Virus record (IMG/VR): IMGVR_UViG_3300035158_000899
Source of the DNA: a virus
Lineage: Duplodnaviria; Heunggongvirae; Uroviricota; Caudoviricetes
DNA: 50,593 nt
Direction: 5' to 3' (one strand)
The notes under the pieces were generated by a model. The model was not told where the DNA came from and ran no database searches. It saw nothing but the letters and a program-made list of their open reading frames with translations. Below, piece after piece: positions 13,418 through 44,119 of the stretch (position 1 is its first letter; each line of letters opens with the position of its first letter). The position numbers and the translations under genes were made by a program.

Positions 13418-13810
13418 ATGGAAAAGATTGTAGATCTTGGAGTTGATGCTGGAAATATATCCTTTGTTGATAAGGATTATATTTTAGCGAACAATGGTAT
13501 GATAGGTGACACTGCGAAAAGAGAGTGCAAAGAGTACGAGATAGGACCTGGTGAATACAAGATAAACATAGAAATGCCTGATACTTGGAATGGAAAAATA
13601 AGCGAGGAATTTACGATAAGTATTCCATCGGGAACGTTGTGTGTTGGAGATATGTGTTATTTCTTTTCGTCGGATGAAGTTGATCATAATGTATGGTTGG
13701 ATTATTTGAATAGAACGAACCATATGGAGAAGCAAGAAGAAGAAAGGGTTACATGCCGTACAGGCGGTGATGGTGAGTTTTCTGTTTCGTTTGGGATAAC
13801 GAAAGTTTGA
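13418..13810 (+). CDS. hypothetical protein
   Basis: ORF track; GVDAG...VGDMCY...TGGDGEF motifs. Confidence 0.7.
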   Translation: MEKIVDLGVDAGNISFVDKDYILANNGMIGDTAKRECKEYEIGPGEYKINIEMPDTWNGKISEEFTISIPSGTLCVGDMCYFFSSDEVDHNVWLDYLNRTNHMEKQEEERVTCRTGGDGEFSVSFGITKV

Positions 13811-13821
13811 AAGGAGTAATA

Positions 13822-15543
13822 ATGCCATACGATAATGAGCATGTAGCAAATATTCTCGATGAACTTGCTTCGATGCTTGAGATGTCAGGGAATAAGGGAG
13901 ATAGGTTTAAAGTAAGTGCATACAAAAAAGGCGCACTTGCTGTTAGACAACTTACGAGAGACATCAACACAATCGATTTTAACACTGAAAAAATACCTGG
14001 AATAGGAAAAAGCATGATTGAAAAGATAGGTGAAATTCTACAAACGGGAACCTGCAAGAAACGTGAAGAGCTAATAAAAGATAGTCCCGTACCACCGACA
14101 GTAACACAATTCAAGAAACTTCCTGGAATAGGCCCAAAGAAAGCAATAGCAATTTGGGAAAAATACAAAGTAGCAACACTTGAAGAACTTGATGCAAAGA
14201 TAAAAGACGGAACAATAGACAATCCAGATCTTGCAGAAGCACTTGAATTTGCTAAGAGAGCAGGATCGAGAAGGCTTTACAGAGATGGATTTAAGATAGC
14301 TGAAAAAGTAAGACTGAAAATGCTTGAAATGCCAGGCGTTAAGATAGCAACACATCTTGGTTCAATTCGAAGAAAGAAACCAACAGTAAAAGACGCTGAC
14401 ATTGGTATTGTAGTAGAATCACCTGAGATAGAAAAGAAAGTAGTAGAAGAATTTCTTTCAATGGCGCAGAAAGTAAGATCGAGTGGACCACAAAAGCCTT
14501 CGATTTACATAAATGATTTCCAAGTAGACTTAACGATAATACCTGAAGATGAATACGGAACATATATATTACACGCAACAGGAAGTGCAGAATTTAATAT
14601 AGCAATGAGAATGCGAGCACTTTCAACTTTAAGTAAAATGAGTCTAAGTGAACATGGAATAACAAACTCTGTAACAGGAGAGGAATACAAATTTAAGACG
14701 GAAGAAGCAGTATTTAAATTTCTTAGGTTGCAATACATACCGCCTGAGATGAGAGAAAACCAAGGAGAAATTGAACTAGCGGAGAAACATGAAATACCTG
14801 AATTTGTGACAATGGATGATATTGAAACTGATTATCATCTTCATTCAAAGTACTCAGATGGTTCAGGGACAATAGAACAACTTGCGGAAGAAGCTAAAAG
14901 GAGAGGGCTGAAAACAATTGTAATTACAGATCACGCTAAGAAACTTGCTATGGCAGGCGGATTGAAAGATGAAGAACTACAGAAGCAAATAGATCATATC
15001 AAGAGTCTGAACATCGAAGGTATTGCAGTAAAATCGGGCATTGAGCTTAATATTGATTCAAGCGGTAATATAGATGATTATCCAGAAGAGATACTAAAAC
15101 AGCTCGATGAAGTAATTGCTTCGGTACACTTTGGATTTAACGGAGACCAAACAGAGCGGCTAATCAAGGCAATTCAGAATCCATACGTTACAATACTAGG
15201 GCATCCTGATTGCGCAGATCATGGAAAGAGAGAACCAATAAAAGCAGGTTGGGAGAAAGTAATCAAAGTATGCGCAGAAAACAATGTAGCTCTTGAAATA
15301 ACAGGGCAACCTTCGAGATACGGATTATCAATTGAGATGTGTAAGATAGGGAAGAAATACGGAGTGAAATTTACGCTAGGTACAGACACACACAGACTTG
15401 AGAATATGGATTATATGCAGTATGCAGTTAATTCAGCAAGAAGAGGAGGTCTTACAAAAGATAATATTCGTGGTACAGGAAAGAGAACTGTGACAAAGAA
15501 GGAAATCGATGTAACCAATATTGAGATAATTCCATTGAAATAG
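13822..15543 (+). CDS. polX: DNA polymerase X family with C-terminal PHP domain
   Basis: HhH motifs (IPGIG, LPGIGPK), GSIRRKKPTVKDADI, QVDL, HATGSAEFN; PHP motifs HLHSKYSDG, ITDHA, GHPD, GTDTH. Confidence 0.92.
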   Translation: MPYDNEHVANILDELASMLEMSGNKGDRFKVSAYKKGALAVRQLTRDINTIDFNTEKIPGIGKSMIEKIGEILQTGTCKKREELIKDSPVPPTVTQFKKLPGIGPKKAIAIWEKYKVATLEELDAKIKDGTIDNPDLAEALEFAKRAGSRRLYRDGFKIAEKVRLKMLEMPGVKIATHLGSIRRKKPTVKDADIGIVVESPEIEKKVVEEFLSMAQKVRSSGPQKPSIYINDFQVDLTIIPEDEYGTYILHATGSAEFNIAMRMRALSTLSKMSLSEHGITNSVTGEEYKFKTEEAVFKFLRLQYIPPEMRENQGEIELAEKHEIPEFVTMDDIETDYHLHSKYSDGSGTIEQLAEEAKRRGLKTIVITDHAKKLAMAGGLKDEELQKQIDHIKSLNIEGIAVKSGIELNIDSSGNIDDYPEEILKQLDEVIASVHFGFNGDQTERLIKAIQNPYVTILGHPDCADHGKREPIKAGWEKVIKVCAENNVALEITGQPSRYGLSIEMCKIGKKYGVKFTLGTDTHRLENMDYMQYAVNSARRGGLTKDNIRGTGKRTVTKKEIDVTNIEIIPLK

Positions 15544-17064: not shown

Positions 17065-17688
17065 ATGGAATTGAGGAGAGCTATGCGTGTAGACCCTGAA
17101 ATTGTTAAGAAATATACCGTAAGCATAATACGTGATTTTACGAATATAAGACGCTGGCCACATAAACGCGACAGAAATAAAATGTCATTAATCGCAGTGG
17201 TAGATGGTTGTGCATATCGTATACCTTCTTCTGATACTATAAACAAAGGAATAGTACGATTAGAATTAGCATATTCGATATTATATCCTGAACTTCCGGC
17301 TATGCCACTTTCAGAATGCGGGAAAACCCCAGAAAAATATGATATATGTGGAAATGTAATAGTGTACAGAAAAGATGTTTACCTTTTAGTAAGAAAAACA
17401 CACTCACACGGTGATTATCAATTTTACTTTAAATTAAATGGCGATAAATGGGAAAGACAAAATACTAGGGAATTTAGCAAATTTCTACATAAGGAAATCG
17501 TTACAATAAAGCGTAACGGATTGTGGAAAAGGCCAAACAAAGAAGAAAAAGAATTACTTAAGAGGTTAAGAAGATTAAACCCACATAAAGATAAAAGGAT
17601 GGCTGTTCGAAATCCTTTGGATAATCATATTTCTTTGAAAAAAGTTCTCTATTTTAATAAGGAGGCAAGATGGATTTTATCGAAATAG
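17065..17688 (+). CDS. hypothetical basic protein
   Basis: 207 aa ORF. Confidence 0.6.
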   Translation: MELRRAMRVDPEIVKKYTVSIIRDFTNIRRWPHKRDRNKMSLIAVVDGCAYRIPSSDTINKGIVRLELAYSILYPELPAMPLSECGKTPEKYDICGNVIVYRKDVYLLVRKTHSHGDYQFYFKLNGDKWERQNTREFSKFLHKEIVTIKRNGLWKRPNKEEKELLKRLRRLNPHKDKRMAVRNPLDNHISLKKVLYFNKEARWILSK

Positions 17689-19619
17689 AGTTAGAAGATG
17701 ATACTGAAAAGAAGTTGAGAGCAGCGGCTGATGCTTATTACAATAAGCAGCCAATAATGTCGGATGAAGAATTCGATGCCCTAAAAGATAAGCTAAGAGA
17801 AAAAGACCCAAATAACAGCTTCTTAAAACAGATAGGTTCACCTATTAAGGTAACAGAATGGGAAATTGCAAAGCATAAGATTGCAATGTGCTCTCTCGAT
17901 AAAGTAAGTACGCCGGAAGAGTTTATCAAATGGGCAAGAGCAAAAGCGAAGTCTTTTATTATCAATGAAAAGTTTGACGGCATTTCAATCAATTTAGAAT
18001 ATGATAACGGGGAACTTATAAAAGCAATTACACGCGGTGATGGAATCGAAGGCGAAGATATATTGAGTAATGTTGTTAAGATGAAGAATGTTAAAACTAA
18101 GGTAGATGGTTTTACAGGTTCGATCAGAGGTGAGATAATATTAAGAGAATCAAAGCTAAATGAATTAAATAAAGCAGTAGAAAAAGCAGGCGAAAGAACA
18201 TATCAGAATTCAAGAAATGGTGCTTCTGGAATAGCAAAAAGATACGATGGACAATATTCCGAATACCTTGAAATAATATATTACGATGTTGCAAACGGAA
18301 AACCTTTCGAAACAGAAGAAAGTAAACTTGAATTTATAAAAGAGCAGGGTCTTGAAATCACATACTTCGAAATAGCAGATGTTAGTAAAGTTATTGAAGT
18401 TTACGAAGAATATTGTAACATTAAACGAGGATTACTTGATTATGCAATTGACGGATTAGTAATTAAAATAAACGATTTAGCTGTACAAAACAGCTTAGGT
18501 TCTACACATGGAATTCCGAAAGGCCAAATAGCTTTTAAGTTTCCCGCAGAAGCAAAGATAACGAAAATAAAAGAAGTAGAATGGTCATTAGGTAAAGGTG
18601 GAAAAATTACACCTGTTGCTATAATGGAGCCAGTTAAGCTTTGTGGAGCAAATGTTAAGAGAGCATCACTTCATAATATTGATATGTTCAAAACTCTTAA
18701 CTTAGGATCGAATGACGAAATACTTGTTAAGAGAGCAGGGGATGTAATACCTTATGTAGAGAAAGTTATAACATATGTTTCTGATTCGAAGTTTGAAATA
18801 CCTAAGAATTGCTCAGCTTGTAATTCAGAACTAGTAGAAGATGGTAAATTCTTGGTTTGCTTGAATCAGGATTGCGTAGCTCACAAAGAAGGTGATCTCC
18901 ATAAGTGGATTAAAAAACTTGATGTAAAAGATATAGGGGACAAGTTAATTGAAAATTTATTCGAGAATGGAATAGTAAAAGATCCGGCAGATTTTTATAC
19001 ATTGAAAATAGAAGATGTTTCTTCTTTAGAGCGGATGGGAAAAAGATCAGCTAAGAAAGTGATTGAGCATTTGAATGAGAAGAAAAAGCTTGAATTACCA
19101 GTGTTTTTAGCGGCTTTGAATATCAACGATTTTTCAGAATCAACAGTTACATTGATAGCAGAAGCCGGGTACGATACATTAGATAAAGTGATTGATTTAA
19201 TTAAAGATCCCAAAAGTGCTATTGATAGACTATCTACAATTCATGGTATTGGTTATATTACTGCGGAAAAAGCAGTATATGGATTAAATAAGAAGATATC
19301 ATTGATTGAAAAGTTGTTAAGTGTAGGGATAGTGATAAGAGAAAAGAAGGAGGTTGAAGTGGATTCAAGTAAGTTAAATGGTGCGTCGTTTTGTTTCACC
19401 GGAGCAATTCAGGCCGTTGATGAAGAGGGTAAGAGATATGCAAGGTCAAGACTAGAAGAAATGGTTATACAGAATGGCGGTAAAATAGAATCGATGAGTA
19501 AGAAGCTAGATTATTTGGTACAAGCGGATCCAAATTCACAATCATCGAAAAGTGTTAAGGCAAAGAAGTTTGGTGTAGAGATTATATCTGAGAAACAGTT
19601 TTTTGAGATACTGGATTAA
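17670..19619 (+). CDS. ligA: NAD-dependent DNA ligase
   Basis: YY..PIMSDEEFD, EKFDGIS, TRGDG.EGEDI, IRGEI, RNGASG, IDGLVIK, AFKFP, C4 zinc finger, HhH, C-terminal BRCT. Confidence 0.95.
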   Translation: MDFIEIELEDDTEKKLRAAADAYYNKQPIMSDEEFDALKDKLREKDPNNSFLKQIGSPIKVTEWEIAKHKIAMCSLDKVSTPEEFIKWARAKAKSFIINEKFDGISINLEYDNGELIKAITRGDGIEGEDILSNVVKMKNVKTKVDGFTGSIRGEIILRESKLNELNKAVEKAGERTYQNSRNGASGIAKRYDGQYSEYLEIIYYDVANGKPFETEESKLEFIKEQGLEITYFEIADVSKVIEVYEEYCNIKRGLLDYAIDGLVIKINDLAVQNSLGSTHGIPKGQIAFKFPAEAKITKIKEVEWSLGKGGKITPVAIMEPVKLCGANVKRASLHNIDMFKTLNLGSNDEILVKRAGDVIPYVEKVITYVSDSKFEIPKNCSACNSELVEDGKFLVCLNQDCVAHKEGDLHKWIKKLDVKDIGDKLIENLFENGIVKDPADFYTLKIEDVSSLERMGKRSAKKVIEHLNEKKKLELPVFLAALNINDFSESTVTLIAEAGYDTLDKVIDLIKDPKSAIDRLSTIHGIGYITAEKAVYGLNKKISLIEKLLSVGIVIREKKEVEVDSSKLNGASFCFTGAIQAVDEEGKRYARSRLEEMVIQNGGKIESMSKKLDYLVQADPNSQSSKSVKAKKFGVEIISEKQFFEILD

Positions 19620-20498: not shown

Positions 20499-21023
20499 AT
20501 GATAATAACGAACATTGATGAATTAAGAAAACCTTCTGAGCCTGTTAAAGACGAAGCGAAAGCAAAAGAAATAATTGGAAAATTAGAAGAAACTTTAAGA
20601 TACAATGGTAACGGAATAGGTTTAGCTGCACCACAGATTGGAATACATAAGCAAGTTGCTATAATACGCTATAACAACTTTTCTTTAGATGTTGTTAATC
20701 CTACAAATGTTCGTTTGTTAGATGGCGCATTTTTATTCAAAGATGAAAGTTGCCTCAGTCTTCCAGGCGTTAGTAAAAACACTTTAAGAGCTAGAAGTAT
20801 CGATTTTATTAACAACGAGAAAGAAAGCCATTTTTATTCAATAGAAAAACTCGAATCTATTATAGTAGTTTGTGTACAACATGAGATAGACCATTTGTTT
20901 GGCAAGTTATTTGTAGATTATGCATTAAAGCCAATTGAAGGTGAAACCAAAATAGGAAGAAACGATCCTTGTATGTGCGGAAGTGAAAAAAAGTTCAAAA
21001 AGTGTTGTGGTAGAGGAACATGA
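20499..21023 (+). CDS. def: peptide deformylase with C-terminal SEC-C motif
   Basis: [26 protein letters not shown]; [18 protein letters not shown]. Confidence 0.9.
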
Positions 21024-23462: not shown

Positions 23463-23708
23463 ATGTATTACAAAATAGGTAGGGTATACGGGCATAGTGT
23501 AGCGAAGATGTTTCTTCCAGTGCCGGTATTTGAAAAGTTTCTTTTAGTAGGAAGAGAAGAATGTAAAAAACCTTGGTGTGATTGCAATATGGGTAGTAAG
23601 TGTCAAGGCAGTTTAGTTACTATAGGAGATAGAATTCACAGTGGCGGATGTGGATATTGGCCAAGTGGTAAACCAATTTATACAGAAGTGAAATGCATTA
23701 CAAAGTAG
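23463..23708 (+). CDS. YKIG-family Cys-rich small protein
   Basis: MYYKIGRVY...FLLVGREEC...CQGSL...CGY...PIYTEV. Confidence 0.8.
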   Translation: MYYKIGRVYGHSVAKMFLPVPVFEKFLLVGREECKKPWCDCNMGSKCQGSLVTIGDRIHSGGCGYWPSGKPIYTEVKCITK

Positions 23709-23914
23709 GCAAGATATATAGAGGGCTGGGTGTCGATATACTTGTATTAAAGAGAGTTGAACGTAAAAAGTGTATCAGCTTTAGATCCGTATCATCGAGG
23801 TGTGATAAGTGCAAAGGTCTTATTATTGGTTTAGGTACACCACTTGAAGAGAATTGTGGGTACTTTATGGACGGGACTCCAATATTTAAAGAAGTGAAAT
23901 GCATTACAAAATAG
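23693..23914 (+). CDS. YKIG-family Cys-rich small protein
   Basis: MHYKVGKIY...CDKCKGLIIGLG...CGY...PIFKEV. Confidence 0.8.
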   Translation: MHYKVGKIYRGLGVDILVLKRVERKKCISFRSVSSRCDKCKGLIIGLGTPLEENCGYFMDGTPIFKEVKCITK

Positions 23915-24117
23915 GTAAGATATACGAGAGCAAGTTATTTGGAAGTAGATTCCTTTTAGTGGGTAGAAAAGAATGCTCGAATCGTCACGATGGCTGCTCA
24001 CTTAAATGTGAAGGTACATTAGTTGGTGTAGGAGATATATCTATTTCCGGTTGTGGTTATGTGGGTAAAGCAGGAGGACATGAACCTATATATAAAGAAG
24101 TGAAAACCAAAACCTAA
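23899..24117 (+). CDS. YKIG-family Cys-rich small protein
   Basis: MHYKIGKIY...FLLVGRKEC...CEGTLVGVG...CGY...PIYKEV. Confidence 0.8.
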   Translation: MHYKIGKIYESKLFGSRFLLVGRKECSNRHDGCSLKCEGTLVGVGDISISGCGYVGKAGGHEPIYKEVKTKT

Positions 24118-24134
24118 TTCAAAAGGAGGTTTTT

Positions 24135-24746
24135 ATGTCTCTCGTTTCACAAAAGTACAAACTCTCAATTACGTTTACAGGTCCTATTCTTGGTAGTCAA
24201 CCAGGAAAGGATACCCCTGCAAGTGATTTCATTCGGGATAAAGTTAGGAAAGAAAATCCGGATGCAGATATTGCAGATGAAGTTCCTACACTTCCTGAAG
24301 AGCTTGAAAAAGGCACTACAGGATTTCATAGGGACGCAAAAGGAAAACCTATACTTTTCAACTATCAAATAAAAGGGGTGATAAAAGCCGCTGGCGATGT
24401 TCTTAATGGTTTAGATAACTTCAGAGCATTGAAATCAAAAATCACTAATACGGTGTTTGTTAGTCCACGTCAAATCCCCATAAAAGGGAAGTTGCGTAAA
24501 CAACCGCTTGAGAGACCTTTGTTAGGTCAGACTATGAAAGGGCCGAGAACTAGTTTAGCTCGATCTGAAGTAATTGAAGAAGGTGCTAAAATTGTATGTG
24601 AACTCGAAGTAATGCTAACGCCAAAGGTAAAACTTCCAGAAGAGACACTTAGGGATATTTTGGATTATGCCGCTAAGTTAGGCGTCGGGCAGTGGCGTAA
24701 TAGTGGAATATACGGACAGTTTGAATACAAACTCGAAGCGTTGTGA
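24135..24746 (+). CDS. solitary Cas7/RAMP-like protein (putative Vipr-type effector)
   Basis: N-terminal strand YKLSITFTGPILGS, central GKPILFNYQIKGVIKAA helix (cf. RAMP P.IPGSSLKG), C-terminal G-rich loop LGVGQWRNSGIYGQF; AGGAGG RBS; no other cas gene in window. Confidence 0.75.
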   Translation: MSLVSQKYKLSITFTGPILGSQPGKDTPASDFIRDKVRKENPDADIADEVPTLPEELEKGTTGFHRDAKGKPILFNYQIKGVIKAAGDVLNGLDNFRALKSKITNTVFVSPRQIPIKGKLRKQPLERPLLGQTMKGPRTSLARSEVIEEGAKIVCELEVMLTPKVKLPEETLRDILDYAAKLGVGQWRNSGIYGQFEYKLEAL

Positions 24747-24747
24747 T

Positions 24748-25371
24748 AGTTTCGTAACGTACCATAACACAACGTATCGTTGGGGTAATACATAGTGCGG
24801 TTAAGTAAGGCGCCGGCAGGGTAGGGTAGTGTTCTGGCCGTATAGTTTTGTTCAGTATTGGCGAGGTACGGCGTAATTTGGTCCGGTGTTGGTTTAGTTA
24901 GGTTTGGTTGGTTTCGTCGGGTTCGGTGCTGGCTAAGTTTGGTAGAGCGAAGCACAGCACAGGCAACGTTATGTAGGGTATGGTACTGTGACGTTTTGGC
25001 AAGGTACTGCGCAGGACAGCTGAGCGCAGTAGTGGCTGGGTAATGTGTGGCGATGTTATGTACAGTAATGTTTCGGCTTAGTCCCGTAAAGCACAGTCAC
25101 GGCAGGGTAACGTAAGGTGCAGAGGATGTGGTATTGTGTGGTAGAGGTAATGTGCAGGACAGCTGAGCGCAGTAGCGGCAGGGCGCTGAGTAGCACAGCA
25201 CAGTAGTGTGTTGCCTTGTACTGGCATGGCAATGTTCAGTTTAGTACAGTATTGTGTCGGTAATGTCTGGTCGGATGTCGTGAGGTGGTGGTAATGTGTG
25301 GCGAGGTGCCGTGGGGTGGTAGTATGGTAAGGTTGTGTGTGGCGGAGCATAGTGCAGTAATGGTACTGTTA
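24748..25371 (+). repeat. degenerate 5-nt-period NGY-NN tandem array, putative non-coding guide RNA
   Basis: ~110 NGY triplets spaced by variable dinucleotides, e.g. ggc-aa ggt-ac tgc-gc agg-ac agc-tg agc-gc agt-ag; GC content well above flanks; starts 1 nt after the RAMP stop and ends at the next RBS. Confidence 0.85.
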
Positions 25372-25380
25372 AGGAGAAAC

Positions 25381-25629
25381 ATGTATTATAAAATAGGAAA
25401 GATGTACAAGAACAAGTCTTATAAGTTTTTACTTATAGGAAGAGTAAAATGTAGTGGATGTTATAATTCTCTACATATGAAACATATAAATATAGACGCC
25501 AATGGTTGTTATGTAAAATGCAGAGGTAGATTAAAGATAGTAGGAAAAGCTCACGGGTTCGATAATAGTAATTCAACAATATGCGGTTATGGAATAAATA
25601 AACCTATATTTGAAGAAATGGAGGAGTGA
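25381..25629 (+). CDS. YKIG-family Cys-rich small protein
   Basis: MYYKIGKMY at 25381 after AAGGAG; FLLIGRVKC...CRGRL...ICGY...PIFEEM. Confidence 0.8.
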   Translation: MYYKIGKMYKNKSYKFLLIGRVKCSGCYNSLHMKHINIDANGCYVKCRGRLKIVGKAHGFDNSNSTICGYGINKPIFEEMEE

Positions 25630-26079: not shown

Positions 26080-26415
26080 TTGAGCCACGATTTAGAAATA
26101 AAGATGGCTAAAATATTAGGTATTAGAGATACTTACACATTAGCTCATTTTGAAAATTTTTCAAAAGAACAATCGCTTGCTATGAGTGAAGGAAGATTTA
26201 AACTTCCTAAAAGATCAATTAAATGTGAGATTGGCAAATGGTATAGAGCAACAAATGAAAGAAGTATGTTCCTTGCAGCGAGGAAAATAACTTGTCCCTT
26301 TACACCCAATTACACTTTTTGTGTCGATTGTAAAGGTGCAATAGAAGGGGTAGGGATAGAAAGACCAGTTTGTCCAATGATGGGTAACATAGAAGAAATA
26401 AATAATGTATTATAA
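26080..26415 (+). CDS. protein with C-terminal YKIG-family domain
   Basis: ...KCEIGKWY...CVDCKGAIEGVG...VCP...EEI; start uncertain. Confidence 0.6.
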   Translation: MSHDLEIKMAKILGIRDTYTLAHFENFSKEQSLAMSEGRFKLPKRSIKCEIGKWYRATNERSMFLAARKITCPFTPNYTFCVDCKGAIEGVGIERPVCPMMGNIEEINNVL

Positions 26416-26668
26416 AATAGGTAAAGTATATAAAAACAAAAAGATAGTTGATTTTGTAGAGATTGATGCAAATGGAAGCAAACCTACTTCGGTTGATAGG
26501 ATTCTTGTTTTAAGAAGAAAAGAATGTGCACATAAGTTTTGTCAGAAGCAAAGGAATATACCTAATTGTCAAGGATTGATAATTTGTTTAGGACATAAGA
26601 ATCAGCTTTGCGGATATTCATATGAAACAGGTGAACCCTTATTTGAAGAAATAAGCAATGTATTATGA
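26405..26668 (+). CDS. YKIG-family Cys-rich small protein
   Basis: MYYKIGKVY...RRKEC...CQGLIICLG...LCGY...PLFEEI. Confidence 0.8.
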   Translation: MYYKIGKVYKNKKIVDFVEIDANGSKPTSVDRILVLRRKECAHKFCQKQRNIPNCQGLIICLGHKNQLCGYSYETGEPLFEEISNVL

Positions 26669-26864
26669 AGTAGGAAAAGTATACCGGATAACGGATAGCG
26701 TATTTCCTTCAAGCAAAGTAGTGGGTAAAACATTCCTTTTAATTAAACGCGAAGCATGTGTTGACCGAATGCCACAATGCGGCACCTGTAAAGGAGAATT
26801 GACGGGAGTAGGCATTGATATATCTCTTTGTCCTATGTATTTAAAAATAGAGGAAGTAAAGTAA
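26658..26864 (+). CDS. YKIG-family Cys-rich small protein
   Basis: MYYEVGKVY...FLLIKREAC...CGTCKGELTGVG...LCP. Confidence 0.8.
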   Translation: MYYEVGKVYRITDSVFPSSKVVGKTFLLIKREACVDRMPQCGTCKGELTGVGIDISLCPMYLKIEEVK

Positions 26865-27106
26865 TGTTTTATAAAATAGGGAAGATGTTTAGCGGTTCTG
26901 ATCATAAGGGGACTTTTCGTTTTTTAGTTATAGGAAGAGCTGCATGTTCTCTTAGTCCTAGCTGTAATAATAAGCACTGTAAAGGCGGATTAATTATAGT
27001 AGGCGATAGACCAATTTGGGCGGGCAAGATTGGTCCATTTTGTGGTTATGATTATCTTAATGATGTGCACGATCCGGTTTTTAAAGAAGTAAAAAATGAA
27101 ACTTAA
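26864..27106 (+). CDS. YKIG-family Cys-rich small protein
   Basis: MFYKIGKMF...FLVIGRAAC...CKGGL...FCGY...PVFKEV. Confidence 0.8.
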   Translation: MFYKIGKMFSGSDHKGTFRFLVIGRAACSLSPSCNNKHCKGGLIIVGDRPIWAGKIGPFCGYDYLNDVHDPVFKEVKNET

Positions 27107-27694: not shown

Positions 27695-28087
27695 ATGGAT
27701 GTAGAAATTAAAACATCTGAAGTTTTTAAAGAGTTTTCGAAACTTAAAGCAAAGGAAATGCTCAAAGTAGGTAAAATAATTGGCATTGTTATAGCTGTTA
27801 TTTTGGCAGTGATTGGGATCGGTTATTTAACTGGACTAGGTGTAATTGCAATGATTCCTGTAAAATATGCAACAGAAAATCCGCCTACAATTATTGATAT
27901 AGTAGGAACTGGGCTTTTAACATTATGCGCTATATTTATGATTGGGCTCGTTTGTTATTTGATGTTTAGATACATAATATTTAACTTTATGGTATTAGGG
28001 TTGAAACGTTGGATATCAGGTAATTGGTATGAAGCTAAATGGAATGTGCGACAGAGAAAAGAGAGTGAAGAATGTACTACAAAATAG
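27695..28087 (+). CDS. membrane protein (2 TM)
   Basis: Two hydrophobic segments; GGAGG upstream. Confidence 0.6.
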   Translation: MDVEIKTSEVFKEFSKLKAKEMLKVGKIIGIVIAVILAVIGIGYLTGLGVIAMIPVKYATENPPTIIDIVGTGLLTLCAIFMIGLVCYLMFRYIIFNFMVLGLKRWISGNWYEAKWNVRQRKESEECTTK

Positions 28088-28299
28088 GCCAATGGTATAA
28101 GAATCGTGGGTATAGAGATATACCTAAAATATGCTTGGTAACAAACATAAAGAAGTACAAAAGAGGTAAGACTGATTGGTGTCCGAGAATGTGTTTCGGT
28201 ATGATAGAAATATTAGGTGCAAAGAATGAGTTAGAATGCGGTTTTGATGCAGTTTCAAAAGTACCTATACTTGAAAGAATGGAGAAATATGCTGTATAG
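28072..28299 (+). CDS. YKIG-family small protein
   Basis: MYYKIGQWY...CPRMCFGMIEILG...CGF...PIL. Confidence 0.8.
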   Translation: MYYKIGQWYKNRGYRDIPKICLVTNIKKYKRGKTDWCPRMCFGMIEILGAKNELECGFDAVSKVPILERMEKYAV

Positions 28300-28654
28300 A
28301 ATAGGTAAGATGTATCATGGATTTAACGTTGCTAATTATATGAATGACTATAAAAAGTTTTTTCTTATAGATAGAGTAGAATGTGATTGTAGGTCGAAGC
28401 TTACCTGTTGTCAACATTGTAAAGGAAAGTTAAAGGTTATAGGATACGAGAAACCATTTTGTGGTTATGTACATAAACCAAATACTGTAATAGCAAGGTA
28501 TGCAGAAGTAAAAGAAGAACCGGCTGAATCTATAGCATTACCTTTGGTAAAATACAATGAGAAAGACGAGCCTATATACGGAAGTGTACCTGTACGTTAT
28601 TTACGAACATATCTTAAAGAACCCACGCAAAGAGAACAGTGGAAGGTACAATGA
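28289..28654 (+). CDS. YKIG-family protein with C-terminal extension
   Basis: MLYRIGKMY...FLIDRVEC...CQHCKGKLKVIG...FCGY...YAEV. Confidence 0.75.
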   Translation: MLYRIGKMYHGFNVANYMNDYKKFFLIDRVECDCRSKLTCCQHCKGKLKVIGYEKPFCGYVHKPNTVIARYAEVKEEPAESIALPLVKYNEKDEPIYGSVPVRYLRTYLKEPTQREQWKVQ

Positions 28655-28860
28655 AATATAAAGTAGGTGAATGGTATAAAAAAGGTGAGTCTATATTCCT
28701 TTTGACGAGGAGAATAGGTTGCAGATCACCTATAAATGGTTTATACATTTGCAGAGAGTGTAAAGGAAAAATAGAAGGTTTAGGCTTGGATAAACCCTGG
28801 TGCCCTTATGATGGCAGTGGATTTCCAATATTTACTTTAGTGAAAAAGGAGAGAAAATGA
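28651..28860 (+). CDS. YKIG-family Cys-rich small protein
   Basis: MKYKVGEWY...FLLTRRIGC...CRECKGKIEGLG...WCPY. Confidence 0.8.
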   Translation: MKYKVGEWYKKGESIFLLTRRIGCRSPINGLYICRECKGKIEGLGLDKPWCPYDGSGFPIFTLVKKERK

Positions 28861-29156
28861 TAACCGTTTATCATAATGAGCGATTTGTTGATTTTGCACT
28901 TTTAGATGAAGAAGCAGCAATTAAAATGTTTAATGAGTTACCAAATAATACTACCGTTTTAAAGAAAGTAGCAGAAGTTAATACTGATGATTTAGAAAAA
29001 GCGTTCGAATTGACAAATCATATCGATCATAGTTGGGAAGACAACCCAGAGGTAACGCTTATTGAAAAATCTCGATCTACAAGTACAGGCGATATTATGG
29101 AAAAAGATGAGAAACTGTATATTGTTTTAAGTGTTGGCTTTGCGGAGGTGAAATAA
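28857..29156 (+). CDS. YodL-like domain protein (tentative)
   Basis: LEKAFELTN...RSTSTGDI...YIVLSVGF resembles the YodL-type SxSxxD/GF pattern. Confidence 0.45.
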   Translation: MITVYHNERFVDFALLDEEAAIKMFNELPNNTTVLKKVAEVNTDDLEKAFELTNHIDHSWEDNPEVTLIEKSRSTSTGDIMEKDEKLYIVLSVGFAEVK

Positions 29157-29314
29157 GGAAGCATGTTTATTATTATTTGTTATTCAAAAGCAAGTAATGC
29201 TACGATTGTAACAGATGAGAATGGTGAGAATTTAGTATTTGAAAGCGGTCCTGAAGCAATAGAGTATGCAAAAGCAAATTGTATTGAAAAGTATGCAATA
29301 GCTTATTTATCGTG

Positions 29315-29581
29315 ATGCATTACAAAATAGGTAAAGTATACCAGGTAAAGGAAGAATTTAAGTTCTATACTAGATTTAGTAAGAAGTTTTTTCTTATTAA
29401 AAGAATAAAATGTTCTTTTGTAGATGCAGTAACTTGTAAGTTTTGTAGTCTGTGTTCTGGCGAAAGACTAATAGGCGTTGGTGATTGTAGTAACGAACCT
29501 TTTTGTGGTTATGCAGAACAATATAATGAGGGCATAGTAATATATGAAGAGGTGAGGGATGTTGATAATATTTCCGAATAA
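29315..29581 (+). CDS. YKIG-family Cys-rich small protein
   Basis: MHYKIGKVY...FLIKRIKC...CSLCSGERLIGVG...FCGY...IYEEV. Confidence 0.8.
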   Translation: MHYKIGKVYQVKEEFKFYTRFSKKFFLIKRIKCSFVDAVTCKFCSLCSGERLIGVGDCSNEPFCGYAEQYNEGIVIYEEVRDVDNISE

Positions 29582-36666: not shown

Positions 36667-37788
36667 GTGCCGGAGAAAGAAAAAGAAAAGCAGAGAGATA
36701 CTTATCAGTTTTACGGAAGAAAAGTTGATGCTCTTCAGTTGAAGAGATTTGTCCAGCTGAACATTGAGCTGAATGCAAAAGCGGAGAAACGTAATGAAAG
36801 ACGTTCTGTTATTTGCATTTGGGGTCATCCGGGAATAGGTAAGACTGATATTATAAAGCAGTTCCGTAACGATGATTATGATGTGAGACATATCCCCATT
36901 GCGCAATTTGAAGAAATGGGAGATATTAACGGAATGCCTGAGATTGAAGATGGAGTTACTGTTACGCGTCCACCTTCTTGGGCACCGCAGGAAGAAAAGA
37001 AAGGTATTCTTTTGCTCGACGATTTCAATAGAGCAGATCTAAGGATTCTAAAAGGAATAATGCAGCTTTTGCAGGACTATGGTATGGTAACTTGGCAGAT
37101 TCCAAAGGGCTGGACTATTTGCTTGACTGCAAATCCTGAAGGTGGAGATCATGCTGTAACGTCTCTTGATCCTGCTATTTTGTCAAGAATGAGACATGTT
37201 TCGTTAACGGAAGATTTTCGTGCTTGGGGACGTTGGGCAGAGAGTAATGATGTAGATAAGCGTGGTATTAATTTCATATTGAGATATCCTGAATTGCTTG
37301 TAACGGGCGAGAGAACGAACCCAAGAACACTTACAGAATTCTTCCGTTGTTTGGAAGTTTATCCTAAGGTGAATGAAGAGAACATGGGCGAGATAGAAAT
37401 GCTTGGCAGTGCTTCTATCGATGAAGATGTCGTTACTACTTTTGTAACGTTCTTGACAAAAGGGATGCTTGATTTGATTATTGAGCCAGAAGAGATTTTG
37501 GACAATTTCAAAAAGCAAGAAGATAAGCTTAAGAAACTTTGCAAAGATAATAGACAGGATATTTTGTCTATTATCTCTGAGCGTGTATTTATCAGGATAA
37601 CAAATGATAAATACTCTCCTGGAAATAGCCACCCCGAGAATTTGAGAGCATTTCTAAAGGTAGAAGAGATGCCGAAAGATTTGCGTTACAGTCTTACAGA
37701 GCGTATTGTCAAATCAAAGAGTTCAAAAGCAAGTATGATGCTTGTTGATGACAAGCAGCTTGTCAATCAGATTCTCCAAGTCGTTTAA
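36667..37788 (+). CDS. MoxR-like AAA+ ATPase
   Basis: Walker A GHPGIGKT, Walker B LLLDDFNRA, ICLTANP, LDPAILSR. Confidence 0.88.
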   Translation: MPEKEKEKQRDTYQFYGRKVDALQLKRFVQLNIELNAKAEKRNERRSVICIWGHPGIGKTDIIKQFRNDDYDVRHIPIAQFEEMGDINGMPEIEDGVTVTRPPSWAPQEEKKGILLLDDFNRADLRILKGIMQLLQDYGMVTWQIPKGWTICLTANPEGGDHAVTSLDPAILSRMRHVSLTEDFRAWGRWAESNDVDKRGINFILRYPELLVTGERTNPRTLTEFFRCLEVYPKVNEENMGEIEMLGSASIDEDVVTTFVTFLTKGMLDLIIEPEEILDNFKKQEDKLKKLCKDNRQDILSIISERVFIRITNDKYSPGNSHPENLRAFLKVEEMPKDLRYSLTERIVKSKSSKASMMLVDDKQLVNQILQVV

Positions 37789-37951
37789 GAGGTAAAGATG
37801 GAATTTGAAACCATAGAGTTGAAGGAAATAGGTCTCGAAAAACAGGAGAGGAAGCCACAGTCCTCTCCGGTTTCCGACGCAGAGAGAATAGCCGAATTTG
37901 ACAAGTGGCTAGTAGCCTTTTTTAGCAGGAAGCGATGCGCAGGATGGTTTC

Positions 37952-38824
37952 TTGATTTTTTTTAAGCGGTCGAAGGAAAAATTAAATGTTGATGTTGATT
38001 TAAGCAAAATATTAGGAGAATTTGTATTAAATTATATTTTTATACATTCATTCAGATTAATGCCATGGGAATTAATATCGCTTAATAATCAAGATGTTAT
38101 ATTACCTCAGGATGTTGTTGAAAGATTTGTTTGTAATAAAAAAAGTTATAATTTTACACGATTGTATAAGTATTTTGATCTCTATAAGTTTTCGGATAAA
38201 GCCATACTTGCTTTTGCGCAAAACATTTCAGCATTTAAACATATTTTACGAACACAGAATATAAGTTCAAAACTTGCAGCTGAAATATTACTTCAGCATA
38301 GTAAAGAAGATTGGGCAAAACGTTATGTAGGCAAGAAGTTTAGTTATGAAAGCCTTATTAGAAAAGTAGCAAAGGTAGCAGGAGAAGAACTAGATAAATA
38401 TCAGGTGATATTTCTTACTGATAAAAATAAGATGCTATATGGTATGTTAGCACCAATAAGAGGGTGGAAACAAAAAAGTGCAAGTAATTTTGCAGTAGGT
38501 AAAAAATATGTGTATTCCGATAATGGACATACTAAAGCATTTGTATTCATGCTTACAAAAGTAAAAGGCAATAAGATTTTTGGTACAACATTAAAAGATA
38601 AAGATGTCCAGATTGATGTTGCAAAAGCAGATTTGTGCATGAGGGAACACAAGGAGTATTGTAATTATGTTATTAATGAATTTCATAAATCTTACAAAAC
38701 AAGACAACTACGTACCCACCGAAAAGGTTACGATGTAGAGCCTAATGATGTTAACTTTAGTAGTTTTGATAAAGATAATTTAACTATTAGAAAGAAGCGA
38801 AGCAAGGGGGAAATACTATTATGA
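37952..38824 (+). CDS. hypothetical protein
   Basis: 290 aa ORF between AAA and vWA genes; start uncertain. Confidence 0.65.
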   Translation: MIFFKRSKEKLNVDVDLSKILGEFVLNYIFIHSFRLMPWELISLNNQDVILPQDVVERFVCNKKSYNFTRLYKYFDLYKFSDKAILAFAQNISAFKHILRTQNISSKLAAEILLQHSKEDWAKRYVGKKFSYESLIRKVAKVAGEELDKYQVIFLTDKNKMLYGMLAPIRGWKQKSASNFAVGKKYVYSDNGHTKAFVFMLTKVKGNKIFGTTLKDKDVQIDVAKADLCMREHKEYCNYVINEFHKSYKTRQLRTHRKGYDVEPNDVNFSSFDKDNLTIRKKRSKGEILL

Positions 38825-40119
38825 ATCACAGTGATGTAGATCTTGCACTTAGTAAAACTATTGTTTCTTTGATAAGAAAGAAACCGTTTTATGGTCATGT
38901 TTTAGCTCAGATGTCGAAACATATAACCGACAGGGTGCCAACGCTTGCAGTAGCTATTACAAACAGATTACTTCTGTATGTGAACCCAACATTTTTTATG
39001 AGTCTTAGCGAAAACCACAGATGTGGCGTTTTAGAACATGAAGTTAATCATGTTACTTTCTTGCATGTAACCAGAGGAAGAAATTTTAGTTACCATTCTG
39101 TGGCTAACATTGCTATGGATATTATTGTTAATCAATTCATTGAAAGGAACGATCTTCCGAAAGAAGGTTTGCTTCCTGAGCAATTTGGGTTAGCTAAGAA
39201 CGAAACATTACAATACTATTACGATAAGTTGCTAAAGAAGATGCCGAAAGTAACTGTCAAGGTAATGGGACAAGGTAAAAGACAAGGTAAAGGACAAAGT
39301 CAGGGGCAAAGTCAGGGGCAAAAAGGTGAAAGTGAAGGACAGGGTAAAGAAAAGAGGCAAAAAGGAGAAGGAGATAGAAGCGGTGATGAAGGGCAAGTTG
39401 TTGTTACAATAGATAGTCATGATCAATGGGGTAAAGATGAGAAAGTCGGCGGCCAAGAAGGTGAAATAATAGCTTCTGATGTTATTAAAGAAAGTATTAT
39501 CAAGGAATGTATTAGACATGCTAAAGAAGCTTCACACGGGGATGGCATTGGAGATATGGCAGGTGCAATAGAAGAGTTACTTAAACCGCCTTCAAGAGCT
39601 AAACTTCCATGGAAAGTATTACTTAGAAGATTTCTATCTCACGCCACCAGAACCACAATTGACTATACAAAGAAACGTGTATCAAAAAGGTACAAGACTA
39701 GACCCGGAATAAAGCTCGGTAGTGTGCTTGATATTGCTGTAGCTATAGATACTTCTGGTTCTATTAGTTCTGAAGATCTACAAATGTTTTCAAGTGAAGT
39801 TAGAGAAATTTCGAGATCTGGTACTGGTGTAACAATAATTGAGTGTGATGCAGATATACAGAGGATATATGAATTAAAGAATAATGAAATAATAACAGAA
39901 GTACATGGCAGAGGTGGTACTGATTTTAGACCTGTTTTTGAATATTTAGATAAACCAAGAAACAAGAAAGATGCTTTGGTTTTCTTTACGGATTCACAAG
40001 GTCCAGCTCCAGATAAGAGTAGATTACCTACATTGTGGGTTTTGACACATGGAAATAAAAGACCTGCCCCATTCGGTCTTGAAGTTGAATTGCCAAAGGT
40101 TGTAGAATGTGATGATTAA
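38821..40119 (+). CDS. DUF2201-type metallopeptidase-like/vWA domain protein
   Basis: LEHEVNH (HExxH), G/Q/E-rich linker, MIDAS VAIDTSGS, GRGGTDF. Confidence 0.88.
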   Translation: MNHSDVDLALSKTIVSLIRKKPFYGHVLAQMSKHITDRVPTLAVAITNRLLLYVNPTFFMSLSENHRCGVLEHEVNHVTFLHVTRGRNFSYHSVANIAMDIIVNQFIERNDLPKEGLLPEQFGLAKNETLQYYYDKLLKKMPKVTVKVMGQGKRQGKGQSQGQSQGQKGESEGQGKEKRQKGEGDRSGDEGQVVVTIDSHDQWGKDEKVGGQEGEIIASDVIKESIIKECIRHAKEASHGDGIGDMAGAIEELLKPPSRAKLPWKVLLRRFLSHATRTTIDYTKKRVSKRYKTRPGIKLGSVLDIAVAIDTSGSISSEDLQMFSSEVREISRSGTGVTIIECDADIQRIYELKNNEIITEVHGRGGTDFRPVFEYLDKPRNKKDALVFFTDSQGPAPDKSRLPTLWVLTHGNKRPAPFGLEVELPKVVECDD

Positions 40120-43755: not shown

Positions 43756-44119
43756 ATGCCTAAGCAAATAACAGTCGAAGAATTTTTAAAGGTAAAAGAT
43801 GCTCTTGGTTTGTCTTGGGGTACTTTGTGTATGTATTCTAATTTATCAGAAGACTTTTTCTAATGAAGTAGATTGGTATAATATTTCAAAACGCCAAAAG
43901 CTCAGTGAAGATTTTATAAGAGAATTTAAAGATCGAGTGGATTGGAGTACAATATGCGAAACATAGCAATTAAGTGAAGCCCTCATAGAAGAATTTAAAG
44001 ACCGGATAGATTGGGGATATGTATCCAGGTTTCAAAAATTAAGTGAGAAATTTATAAGGAAGTATAGCAGAAAAGTGTCATGGTATGGTATTTCAAGATA
44101 CCAAAAACTCAGTGGCTAA
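43756..44119 (+). pseudogene. tryptophan-repeat protein (VDW..IS..QKLSE.FI.EF.DR), disrupted
   Basis: About four 23-aa repeats; frameshift ~43860 and in-frame TAG 43964-66 at the consensus Gln. Confidence 0.75.

Follow-up and report, generated by a model that had tools for sequence, protein, structure and literature searches.

Systems termed VIPR (Viral Interference Programmable Repeat), published in a preprint (bioRxiv 10.64898/2026.04.26.720920) and its companions (bioRxiv 10.64898/2026.04.26.720927; 10.64898/2026.10.15.759431), were described only in 2026 and were proposed to be the ancestor of CRISPR effector complexes. They combine a phage-borne RAMP of about 20 kDa, which has one RRM, a G-loop and a thumb (Vipr), with adjoining tandem pentanucleotides of fixed and hypervariable positions that form the guides (vrRNAs). 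The adjoining intergenic tract is expected to hold at least four tandem pentanucleotides of the form YNNGG or of its variants NNNGG, YNNNG and NNNNG, and YNNNG-type repeats as well as staggered arrays are already named there as variants (bioRxiv 10.64898/2026.04.26.720920). Of the seven types distinguished, type II alone was studied in depth, and small-RNA sequencing was reported for types III and V (VIPR preprints). Here we describe a locus carried by a 50,593-nucleotide stretch of DNA (IMG/VR virus record IMGVR_UViG_3300035158_000899), the whole of which is referred to below as the window. An earlier note on this DNA had proposed a link to VIPR; the link is real, it leads to published work (bioRxiv 10.64898/2026.04.26.720920), and membership in the family is supported. 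The locus, a vipr gene with a downstream vrRNA guide array, is very probably a VIPR system of a large uncultivated phage. The following sections demonstrate how the protein folds, that it is homologous to published Viprs, how the array is built and that the linkage of gene and array is conserved. Systems of this kind have been known from the literature since April 2026, and the locus is a further example, not a new kind.

The locus shares with VIPR systems in general the single-RRM protein with G-loop and thumb, the adjoining pentanucleotides and the lack of a CRISPR array and of other cas genes, none of which were found, and it differs from them in no family-defining feature. Its peculiarities are the carrier, an unsampled phage of about 117 kb, the 17 short guides and the missing vap. 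Minimal VIPR loci consist of vipr alone or with one vap, without a CRISPR array, and vipr stands alone here. The tract comprises 121 units, the n-G-Y-n-n consensus of which equals the YNNNG variant, and its segments abut with a one-base offset, which corresponds to the published staggered layout as far as the legend of Fig. S18 describes it. The copy belongs to a clade without a vap gene, with a relaxed n-G-Y-n-n repeat and a tail-less staggered array. With a 203-aa gene and 17 abutting guides in about 1.25 kb, it is a clean and compact example of this experimentally unconfirmed architecture.

The type II system of Escherichia phage SUSP1 was located in KT454805 (vipr 28474-29061, vap1 28031-28471, GGY/NN vrRNAs with hairpin tails in the flanking gaps). 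Its protein is homologous, with the G-loop GVG-x-WR and the helix-1 glycine in register, and its pentamers lie on the strand of the gene, as they do here. However, SUSP1 has strict GGY repeats, vrRNAs of about 100 nt with a conserved structured tail, spacers between them, and vap1, whereas in the window the first G is free, the guides abut with a single extra base, and neither a tail nor a vap is present. Type II vrRNAs contain 9-16 repeats, as compared with 5-9 units per guide here. Since the first base is G in 40% of units, the guides of 5-9 units have no tail or structure and vap is lacking, the locus is not of type II (SUSP1/P. fulva clade).

The Cas7-group RAMPs (Csm3, Cmr4, type VII Cas7, Cas7-11) resemble Vipr in that one protomer covers a fixed step of guide RNA and a thumb flips bases. 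Nevertheless, sequence identity to them is 10-13%, and no repeat-spacer array and no Cas10, Cas5 or Cas6 partners were found here. The Vipr step is 5 nt with three bases displaced, whereas the step of CRISPR RAMPs is 6 nt with one base flipped; VIPR reads DNA by a gapped code, while CRISPR Cas7-group RAMPs pair contiguously with RNA. CRISPR-Cas of type III or VII, in which Cas7 is accompanied by Cas10 or Cas14, further cas genes and a repeat-spacer array, was considered and rejected, as no such array was found and the neighbours are small genes without family assignment. The earlier note had reported that the window is free of CRISPR repeat-spacer arrays, and Tandem Repeats Finder and Rfam indeed find none. 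Its further statement that cas genes are absent stands in part: 10 of the 14 open reading frames of at least 220 aa carry no cas domains, in a search for cas genes that was not exhaustive.

The vipr gene and its product

The open reading frame of 203 aa at 24135-24746 (+ strand), which the earlier note had pointed out together with the periodic tract behind it, is present and encodes a stand-alone RAMP with a single RRM (P0001). A ribosome-binding site, AAGGAGG, can be read from the sequence at 24123-24129 (+ strand), 6 nt before the vipr start; it lies 5 nt past the point where the preceding small gene ends (stop codon 24115-24117), and a scan of the + strand found neither a terminator nor a sigma-70-like site between the two genes. 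Sequence searches of Pfam and the PDB with P0001 returned no family and no match. PHROG 4652 was tried as an assignment and discarded, being a weak match of the C-terminal part only.

The AlphaFold2 model of P0001, based on a 51-sequence alignment, is confident (pLDDT 89, pTM 0.82) and consists of a beta-alpha-beta core, a long hairpin (residues 125-144) and a C-terminal glycine-rich loop. The protein hallmarks named in the earlier note are all recognizable in it, i.e., the N-terminal strand (E4-14), KGVIKAA within a helix (76-89) and the G-rich loop (183-194). The long beta-hairpin (24507-24566, + strand; strands E125-133 and E136-144) is read as the putative RAMP thumb on the basis of the RAMP fold. 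It holds most of the top conserved block of the family (consensus ERPLRxxTxxGPRxxLARSE, residues 126-145), in which R127, P128, G136, R138, L141, A142, S144 and E145 are invariant in 51 homologues. The glycine-rich loop G183-G194 (GVGQWRNSGIYG; 24681-24716, + strand), where G183, Q186, W187, R188 and G194 are invariant in the 51-sequence alignment, aligns with GVGDWRPRFG of SUSP1.

In Foldseek searches against the PDB the model matches type VII Cas7, Csm3 and Cas7-11 (E ~1e-8), and the RAMP fold of the product is confirmed by the model and these matches together. Among AlphaFold-DB clusters, ranks 1-5 are taken by A0A1F4YLN4, X1U2U4, A0A0F9A1L0, A0A2D6XG06 and A0A661D0E2, which are exactly the five AlphaFold-DB (UniProt) entries given as founding non-CRISPR RAMPs in the methods of the VIPR preprint (bioRxiv 10.64898/2026.04.26.720920). 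The top cluster, A0A1F4YLN4, was matched with E 7.6e-20, TM 0.81 and 33% identity, and CRISPR RAMPs rank below all five founders. Comparison of family profiles by hhalign (51 sequences for P0001, 36 for the SUSP1 Vipr) gave an end-to-end alignment of 182 columns (91.6%, E 8e-7), while a direct pairwise comparison of P0001 with the SUSP1 protein shows similarity only over 36 residues of the C-terminal part, around the G-loop (33% identity, E 0.013). A prediction of a three-copy complex of P0001 scored 0.29, under the mark of 0.42.

A word-indexed search yielded 204 homologues of P0001, and an exhaustive one 1275 clusters at 50% identity; with these clusters and 535 viral loci the clade is abundant in public data. 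Some relatives, such as P0259 (458 aa) and P0263 (432 aa), have roughly double the length of P0001 and align with it at two or three places; a tandem fusion of two Vipr proteins is possible in these cases.

Anatomy and conservation of the pentanucleotide array

The array starts at 24748, one base past the TGA of vipr, and ends at about 25366. The 5-nt periodicity proposed in the earlier note is readily measured, since the lag-5 autocorrelation of the tract is 0.462, while 2000 shuffles give 0.275 ± 0.017 (z 10.7). When all 50.6 kb were scanned with a sliding frame, no other region had a strong period of 5 nt; the score reaches 0.25 in the tract and averages -0.006 (sd 0.044) over the window. 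A weak second periodicity at 43851-44025 (score 0.10-0.11, about 2.5 sd above the window mean) is probably due to chance. The tract is also richer in GC than its surroundings, as had been noticed (0.51 vs. 0.40 in the gene and 0.36 in the window), and it shows a strong strand skew of G over C (GC skew about +0.4).

Segmentation by a cyclic hidden Markov model, in which single-base slips were allowed, gave the unit n-G-Y-n-n. Position 2 is G in 93% and position 3 is Y in 95% of units, positions 4-5 are variable, and position 1 tolerates any base (G 40%, A 29%, T 20%, C 11%), in line with what the earlier note had described. Its count of about 110 units agrees with the 110 of 121 units up to 25366 that fit N-G-Y. 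The regular order is interrupted by single extra bases: 18 units of the segmented stretch carry a sixth base, of which one lies inside the end of vipr and 17 were scored as junctions. The unit following such a slip starts with GG in 16 of 17 cases, as compared with 33 of the 103 other units (binomial P 1.5e-7), and a full GGY likewise follows 16 of the 17 junctions. The array can be written equally well as G followed by n copies of G-Y-n-n-n. Segment lengths are mostly 5n+1 nt, and three segments contain one 4-nt unit. Because the junctions split the array into segments of 26-46 nt, the autocorrelation also peaks at lag 31 (0.419) and Tandem Repeats Finder reports a period of 31.

In this way the vrRNA array (24748-25361, + strand) resolves into 17 head-to-tail n-G-Y-n-n segments of 26-46 nt (5-9 units) with one extra base between them, all on the + strand. 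Segment 1 (24748-24783, 7 units), which starts one base past the stop codon, is degenerate, with two units lacking the G; a weak inverted repeat spans the end of vipr nearby (24734-24748/24765-24779). Six units and 31 nt make up segments 2 (24784-24814, GGT start), 4 (24860-24890, GGC), 6 (24931-24961, GGC), 12 (25146-25176, GGT), 15 (25259-25289, GGT) and 16 (25290-25320, GGT). Seven units and 36 nt are found in segments 7 (24962-24997), 8 (24998-25033) and 14 (25223-25258), each with a GGC start, and eight units and 41 nt in segments 9 (25034-25074, GGC) and 17 (25321-25361), the latter being the sole segment that begins with AGT rather than GGY. The shortest is segment 10 (25075-25100, 5 units, 26 nt, GGC). 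Three segments include one 4-nt unit, i.e., segments 3 (24815-24859, 9 units, 45 nt, GGC), 5 (24891-24930, 8 units, 40 nt, GGT) and 11 (25101-25145, 9 units, 45 nt, GGC). Segment 13 (25177-25222, 9 units, 46 nt, GGC) is the longest clean guide and would specify 18 bases under the published rule. Behind segment 17, two further units (GGTAC, TGTTA) lead into the ribosome-binding site of the next small gene (25362-25380, + strand), which can be read from the sequence as AAGGAG at 25371-25376, with the ATG at 25381 (+ strand).

Some guides are copies of one another. The variable dinucleotides of segment 12 are those of segment 8 minus one unit, and 25002-25051 and 25145-25194 are 82% identical over 50 nt; segments 15 and 16 form a tandem 31-nt pair (25259-25320). 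These internal duplicates suggest that guides originate by local duplication and divergence.

Folding of the array RNA gave no stable structure as compared with shuffles (z +1.6), no Rfam family was found in the window at gathering thresholds, hence no hammerhead-interspersed array, and the open reading frames called inside the array have no coding homologues. This fits a linear, protein-coated scaffold. Inter-guide tails, hairpins or ribozymes were not found in the array. Scans for sigma-70 promoters, terminators and the Bacteroidota-type TAnnTTTG motif were at or below chance and are uninformative on transcription. Neither end of the array shows a terminator or a recognizable promoter, and its last units lead directly into the next gene's ribosome-binding site, which suggests that the array lies within a + strand operon and would be transcribed by read-through, together with vipr.

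The coupling of gene and array was examined in relatives, 535 of which were found in a scan of IMG/VR and 80 of whose loci were kept for comparison. If the two belong together, homologues of vipr should be followed by periodic tracts, as the earlier note had proposed, and in 79 of the 80 loci a 5-nt-periodic tract of 300-1200 nt lies downstream, the single exception being a locus cut by the contig end. The tract begins at the gene end in 76 loci and about 0.5-0.6 kb further on in four (L049, L055, L064, L078). No neighbouring gene is common to diverse loci; vipr alone is shared, and there is no vap. The array being found downstream in 79 of 80 loci and no other neighbour being conserved, the locus represents a VIPR system without an accessory gene. 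In 14 diverse loci the unit is n-G-Y-n-n, with G as the first base in only 16-59% of units, and the 5n+1 punctuation followed mostly by GG recurs in 13 of them, L008 being without it; the guide length mode across relatives is 5-7 units. The earlier note had regarded the length and the relaxed first base as unusual for this copy; the long arrays of the relatives and their low first-base G make both features clade-wide.

The closely related gut phages illustrate how the arrays change. At 97-99% gene identity a median of 70% of the array is shared vs. 98% of the upstream flank, so that arrays turn over faster than genes, and the least polymorphic array position is G2 (11%; others 25-30%). The closest relatives (66% identity) carry an insertion between vipr and the array, a gene for an HNH endonuclease of 223 aa (L130 5656-6327 and L131 1543-2214, both Logan contigs), and have retained the array, which follows at 6376-6875 in L130. 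In some relatives, L067 (2001-2950 and 3551-4300; upstream score 0.41) and L070 (2726-3025), vipr is not only followed but also preceded by a strong pentamer array, which recalls the upstream vrRNA of SUSP1.

Repeat reading, target searches and rival explanations

How the locus may function is inferred from its homology to the SUSP1 and P. fulva systems, which have been studied, and this applies to transcription, junction processing, assembly of a filament, the rule by which bases pair, silencing and the kind of target. The + strand would be transcribed through the vipr gene and the array. One Vipr protomer would then bind each pentamer; pockets in the G-loop, thumb and helix-1 would accommodate the conserved G and Y, and the variable bases would stay free. 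The resulting filament is predicted to recognise double-stranded DNA by a gapped code, in which the variable dinucleotide pairs and one target base is skipped per unit, and its binding may block transcription of a competing mobile element, i.e., another phage, a satellite or a prophage of the same host. The one extra base every 5-9 units would reset the phase, with the next guide beginning with a full GGY, so that 17 short guides could be produced. An extra base followed by GGY at the boundaries makes concrete predictions for guide processing.

In the published Vipr structure G1 is read by H17 and D177, G2 by R138 and W178, and Y3 by R179 (VIPR preprints). In the alignments, W178 and R179 of SUSP1 correspond to the invariant W187 and R188 of P0001, whereas S21 (mostly T in the homologues) stands in the place of H17, and Q186, which is invariant, in that of D177. 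The replacement of the G1 contacts and the retention of W187/R188 match a repeat that keeps G2 and Y3, and not G1. This fits a protein that has retained its contacts to the two conserved bases and lost those to the free first base. The correlated loss of first-G contacts (H17 to S/T, D177 to Q) offers a concrete prediction for how repeat specificity is set.

Several observations weigh against the explanation as a VIPR system. A look-up of sequencing runs listed none for 24135-25400. Small-RNA sequencing confirmed only ribozyme and single-guide architectures, not staggered arrays (bioRxiv 10.64898/2026.04.26.720920). Because P0001 and SUSP1 do not align reliably in the thumb region, no residue was taken as the equivalent of R138. 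Guides of 5-9 units specify 10-18 bases, fewer than those of type II with their 9-16 repeats, and therefore the published two-base rule may not transfer unchanged to this array. Target searches likewise gave no convincing target. For self-targets in the window, the 17 guides were compared on both strands with skips of 0-3, and the mean z was -0.4 to +0.4 relative to unit-order shuffles; one isolated match of 15/17 reached z 3.7 among 68 tests. In the large collections (IMG/VR and 185,579 species-representative genomes), where exact gapped matches only were sought, match counts were of chance order, the matched organisms were unrelated and mostly GC-rich, and there was no convergence. Two 10-unit guides of the gut-phage relatives gave zero exact matches.

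Among the individual guides, segment 13 (guide 25177, 18 bases) had one match in the one-skip scan of IMG/VR, in a contig of 64.5% GC that was matched by no other guide. The same guide had four matches in the genome scan, in Solirubrobacterales, Anaerolineae, Halochromatium and Pedobacter, with no second guide nearby; the Pedobacter match lies within a large surface-protein gene. Guides 25034 and 25321 (16 bases) matched IMG/VR 31 and 16 times, and the loci so matched contain 47 further near-matches, after removal of those that had recruited the locus, vs. 29-60 for shuffled guides, again without convergence.

One may ask whether the array is read by a different code. Specificity could reside in three bases per unit (positions 4 and 5 together with position 1 of the following unit), or the skip could be of another length; guides of 5-9 units would still specify 15-27 bases, and Vipr itself or a host RNase would cut the 5n+1 junctions. 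The variability of position 1 is indeed close to that of positions 4 and 5 (25% vs. 27-30% of sites polymorphic), the guides are short (mode 5-7 units in relatives), and there is a statistical dependence between the variable dinucleotide and the first base that comes after it (chi-square P 3e-5). Moreover, neither of the G1-reading residues is kept in the family, which has S/T for H17 and an invariant Q186 for D177; with S/T21 and Q186 in place of the pair that secures the first G, three bases of each pentamer are left free. However, when 185 distinct guides were read as contiguous triplets, stop-codon depletion was weak (z 0.8, 2.3 and 1.9), the lone 18-base exact match of guide 25177 disagrees with a three-base reading, the preprint lists the YNNNG variant without reporting another rule (bioRxiv 10.64898/2026.04.26.720920), and no target was found under any rule in the self-target test of the window. 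A code of this sort is unlikely on balance; if the third free base were read, or the skip were different, it would be a second noncontiguous code, with guide boundaries marked in a new way, without handle, hairpin or ribozyme.

It is more doubtful still that the array acts as one long scaffold, i.e., an RNA of about 620 nt or long pieces of it, coated with Vipr, in which the extra bases would be hinges or phase resets and which could serve in sequestration, as a decoy for rival VIPR systems or in regulation of the phage's own operon. The guide ends bear no tails, hairpins, ribozymes or terminators, the array directly adjoins a stop codon on one side and a ribosome-binding site on the other, inside a + strand operon, and solo vrRNAs of satellites were reported to redirect phage VIPR to decoy sites (companion VIPR preprint), all of which a scaffold would accommodate. 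Against it speak the GGY that follows all junctions but one (P 1.5e-7), a pattern which recurs in most relatives examined and resembles a start signal for separate units, the lack of self-targets in the window, and the reading of staggered arrays as abutting processed vrRNAs in the part of the preprint that deals with them (bioRxiv 10.64898/2026.04.26.720920). The G/T-rich composition, the strand asymmetry (GC skew about +0.4) and the internal duplications could also be those of a tract that acts as DNA or is a by-product, such as a satellite produced by slippage, an element of bent or G-rich DNA or a hotspot of recombination, next to a RAMP-like gene acting on other RNA. This is highly improbable: the units differ, so that Tandem Repeats Finder calls no 5-nt repeat, and two positions are fixed while three vary freely, a pattern which slippage does not yield. 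In addition, the tract lies 3' of the gene and shares its strand in 79 of 80 loci, the phage backgrounds of which are unrelated, and the fixed bases of the tract are those bound by Vipr pockets in the solved complex.

Genomic neighbourhood

The window is a DNA-metabolism region of the large phage (about 117 kb), and all of its genes lie on the + strand. It encodes a PolX-type polymerase with a PHP domain (13807-15543), an NAD-dependent DNA ligase with a BRCT domain (17670-19619), a metallophosphoesterase and, at 36667-40119, an AAA/VWA pair, in which an AAA_5 ATPase is followed, after one intervening gene, by a DUF2201 metallopeptidase/VWA protein. The HNH-bearing relatives L130 and L131 also carry a PolX gene and an AAA_5/CobT pair near vipr, and the genome neighbourhood is therefore partly shared with them.

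The VIPR module is embedded among small paralogous genes, at least 12 in number, which encode proteins of 65-136 aa that start with M-(Y/H)-Y-K-(I/V)-G-K-(V/I/M)-Y and contain at least four cysteines in a zinc-ribbon-like pattern. They abut or overlap and are found on both sides of the module (23463-24117, 25381-25629, 26080-27106, 28072-28860 and 29312-29581). None of them is credibly matched in Pfam or PHROG; the four flanking ones have no PHROG family and only one sub-threshold, spurious Pfam match. In other phages none of these small genes is conserved beside vipr. Further upstream, at 20499-21023, a 174-aa open reading frame shows, by eye, peptide-deformylase motifs (CLS, HEIDH) and a C-terminal SEC-C-like cysteine cluster.

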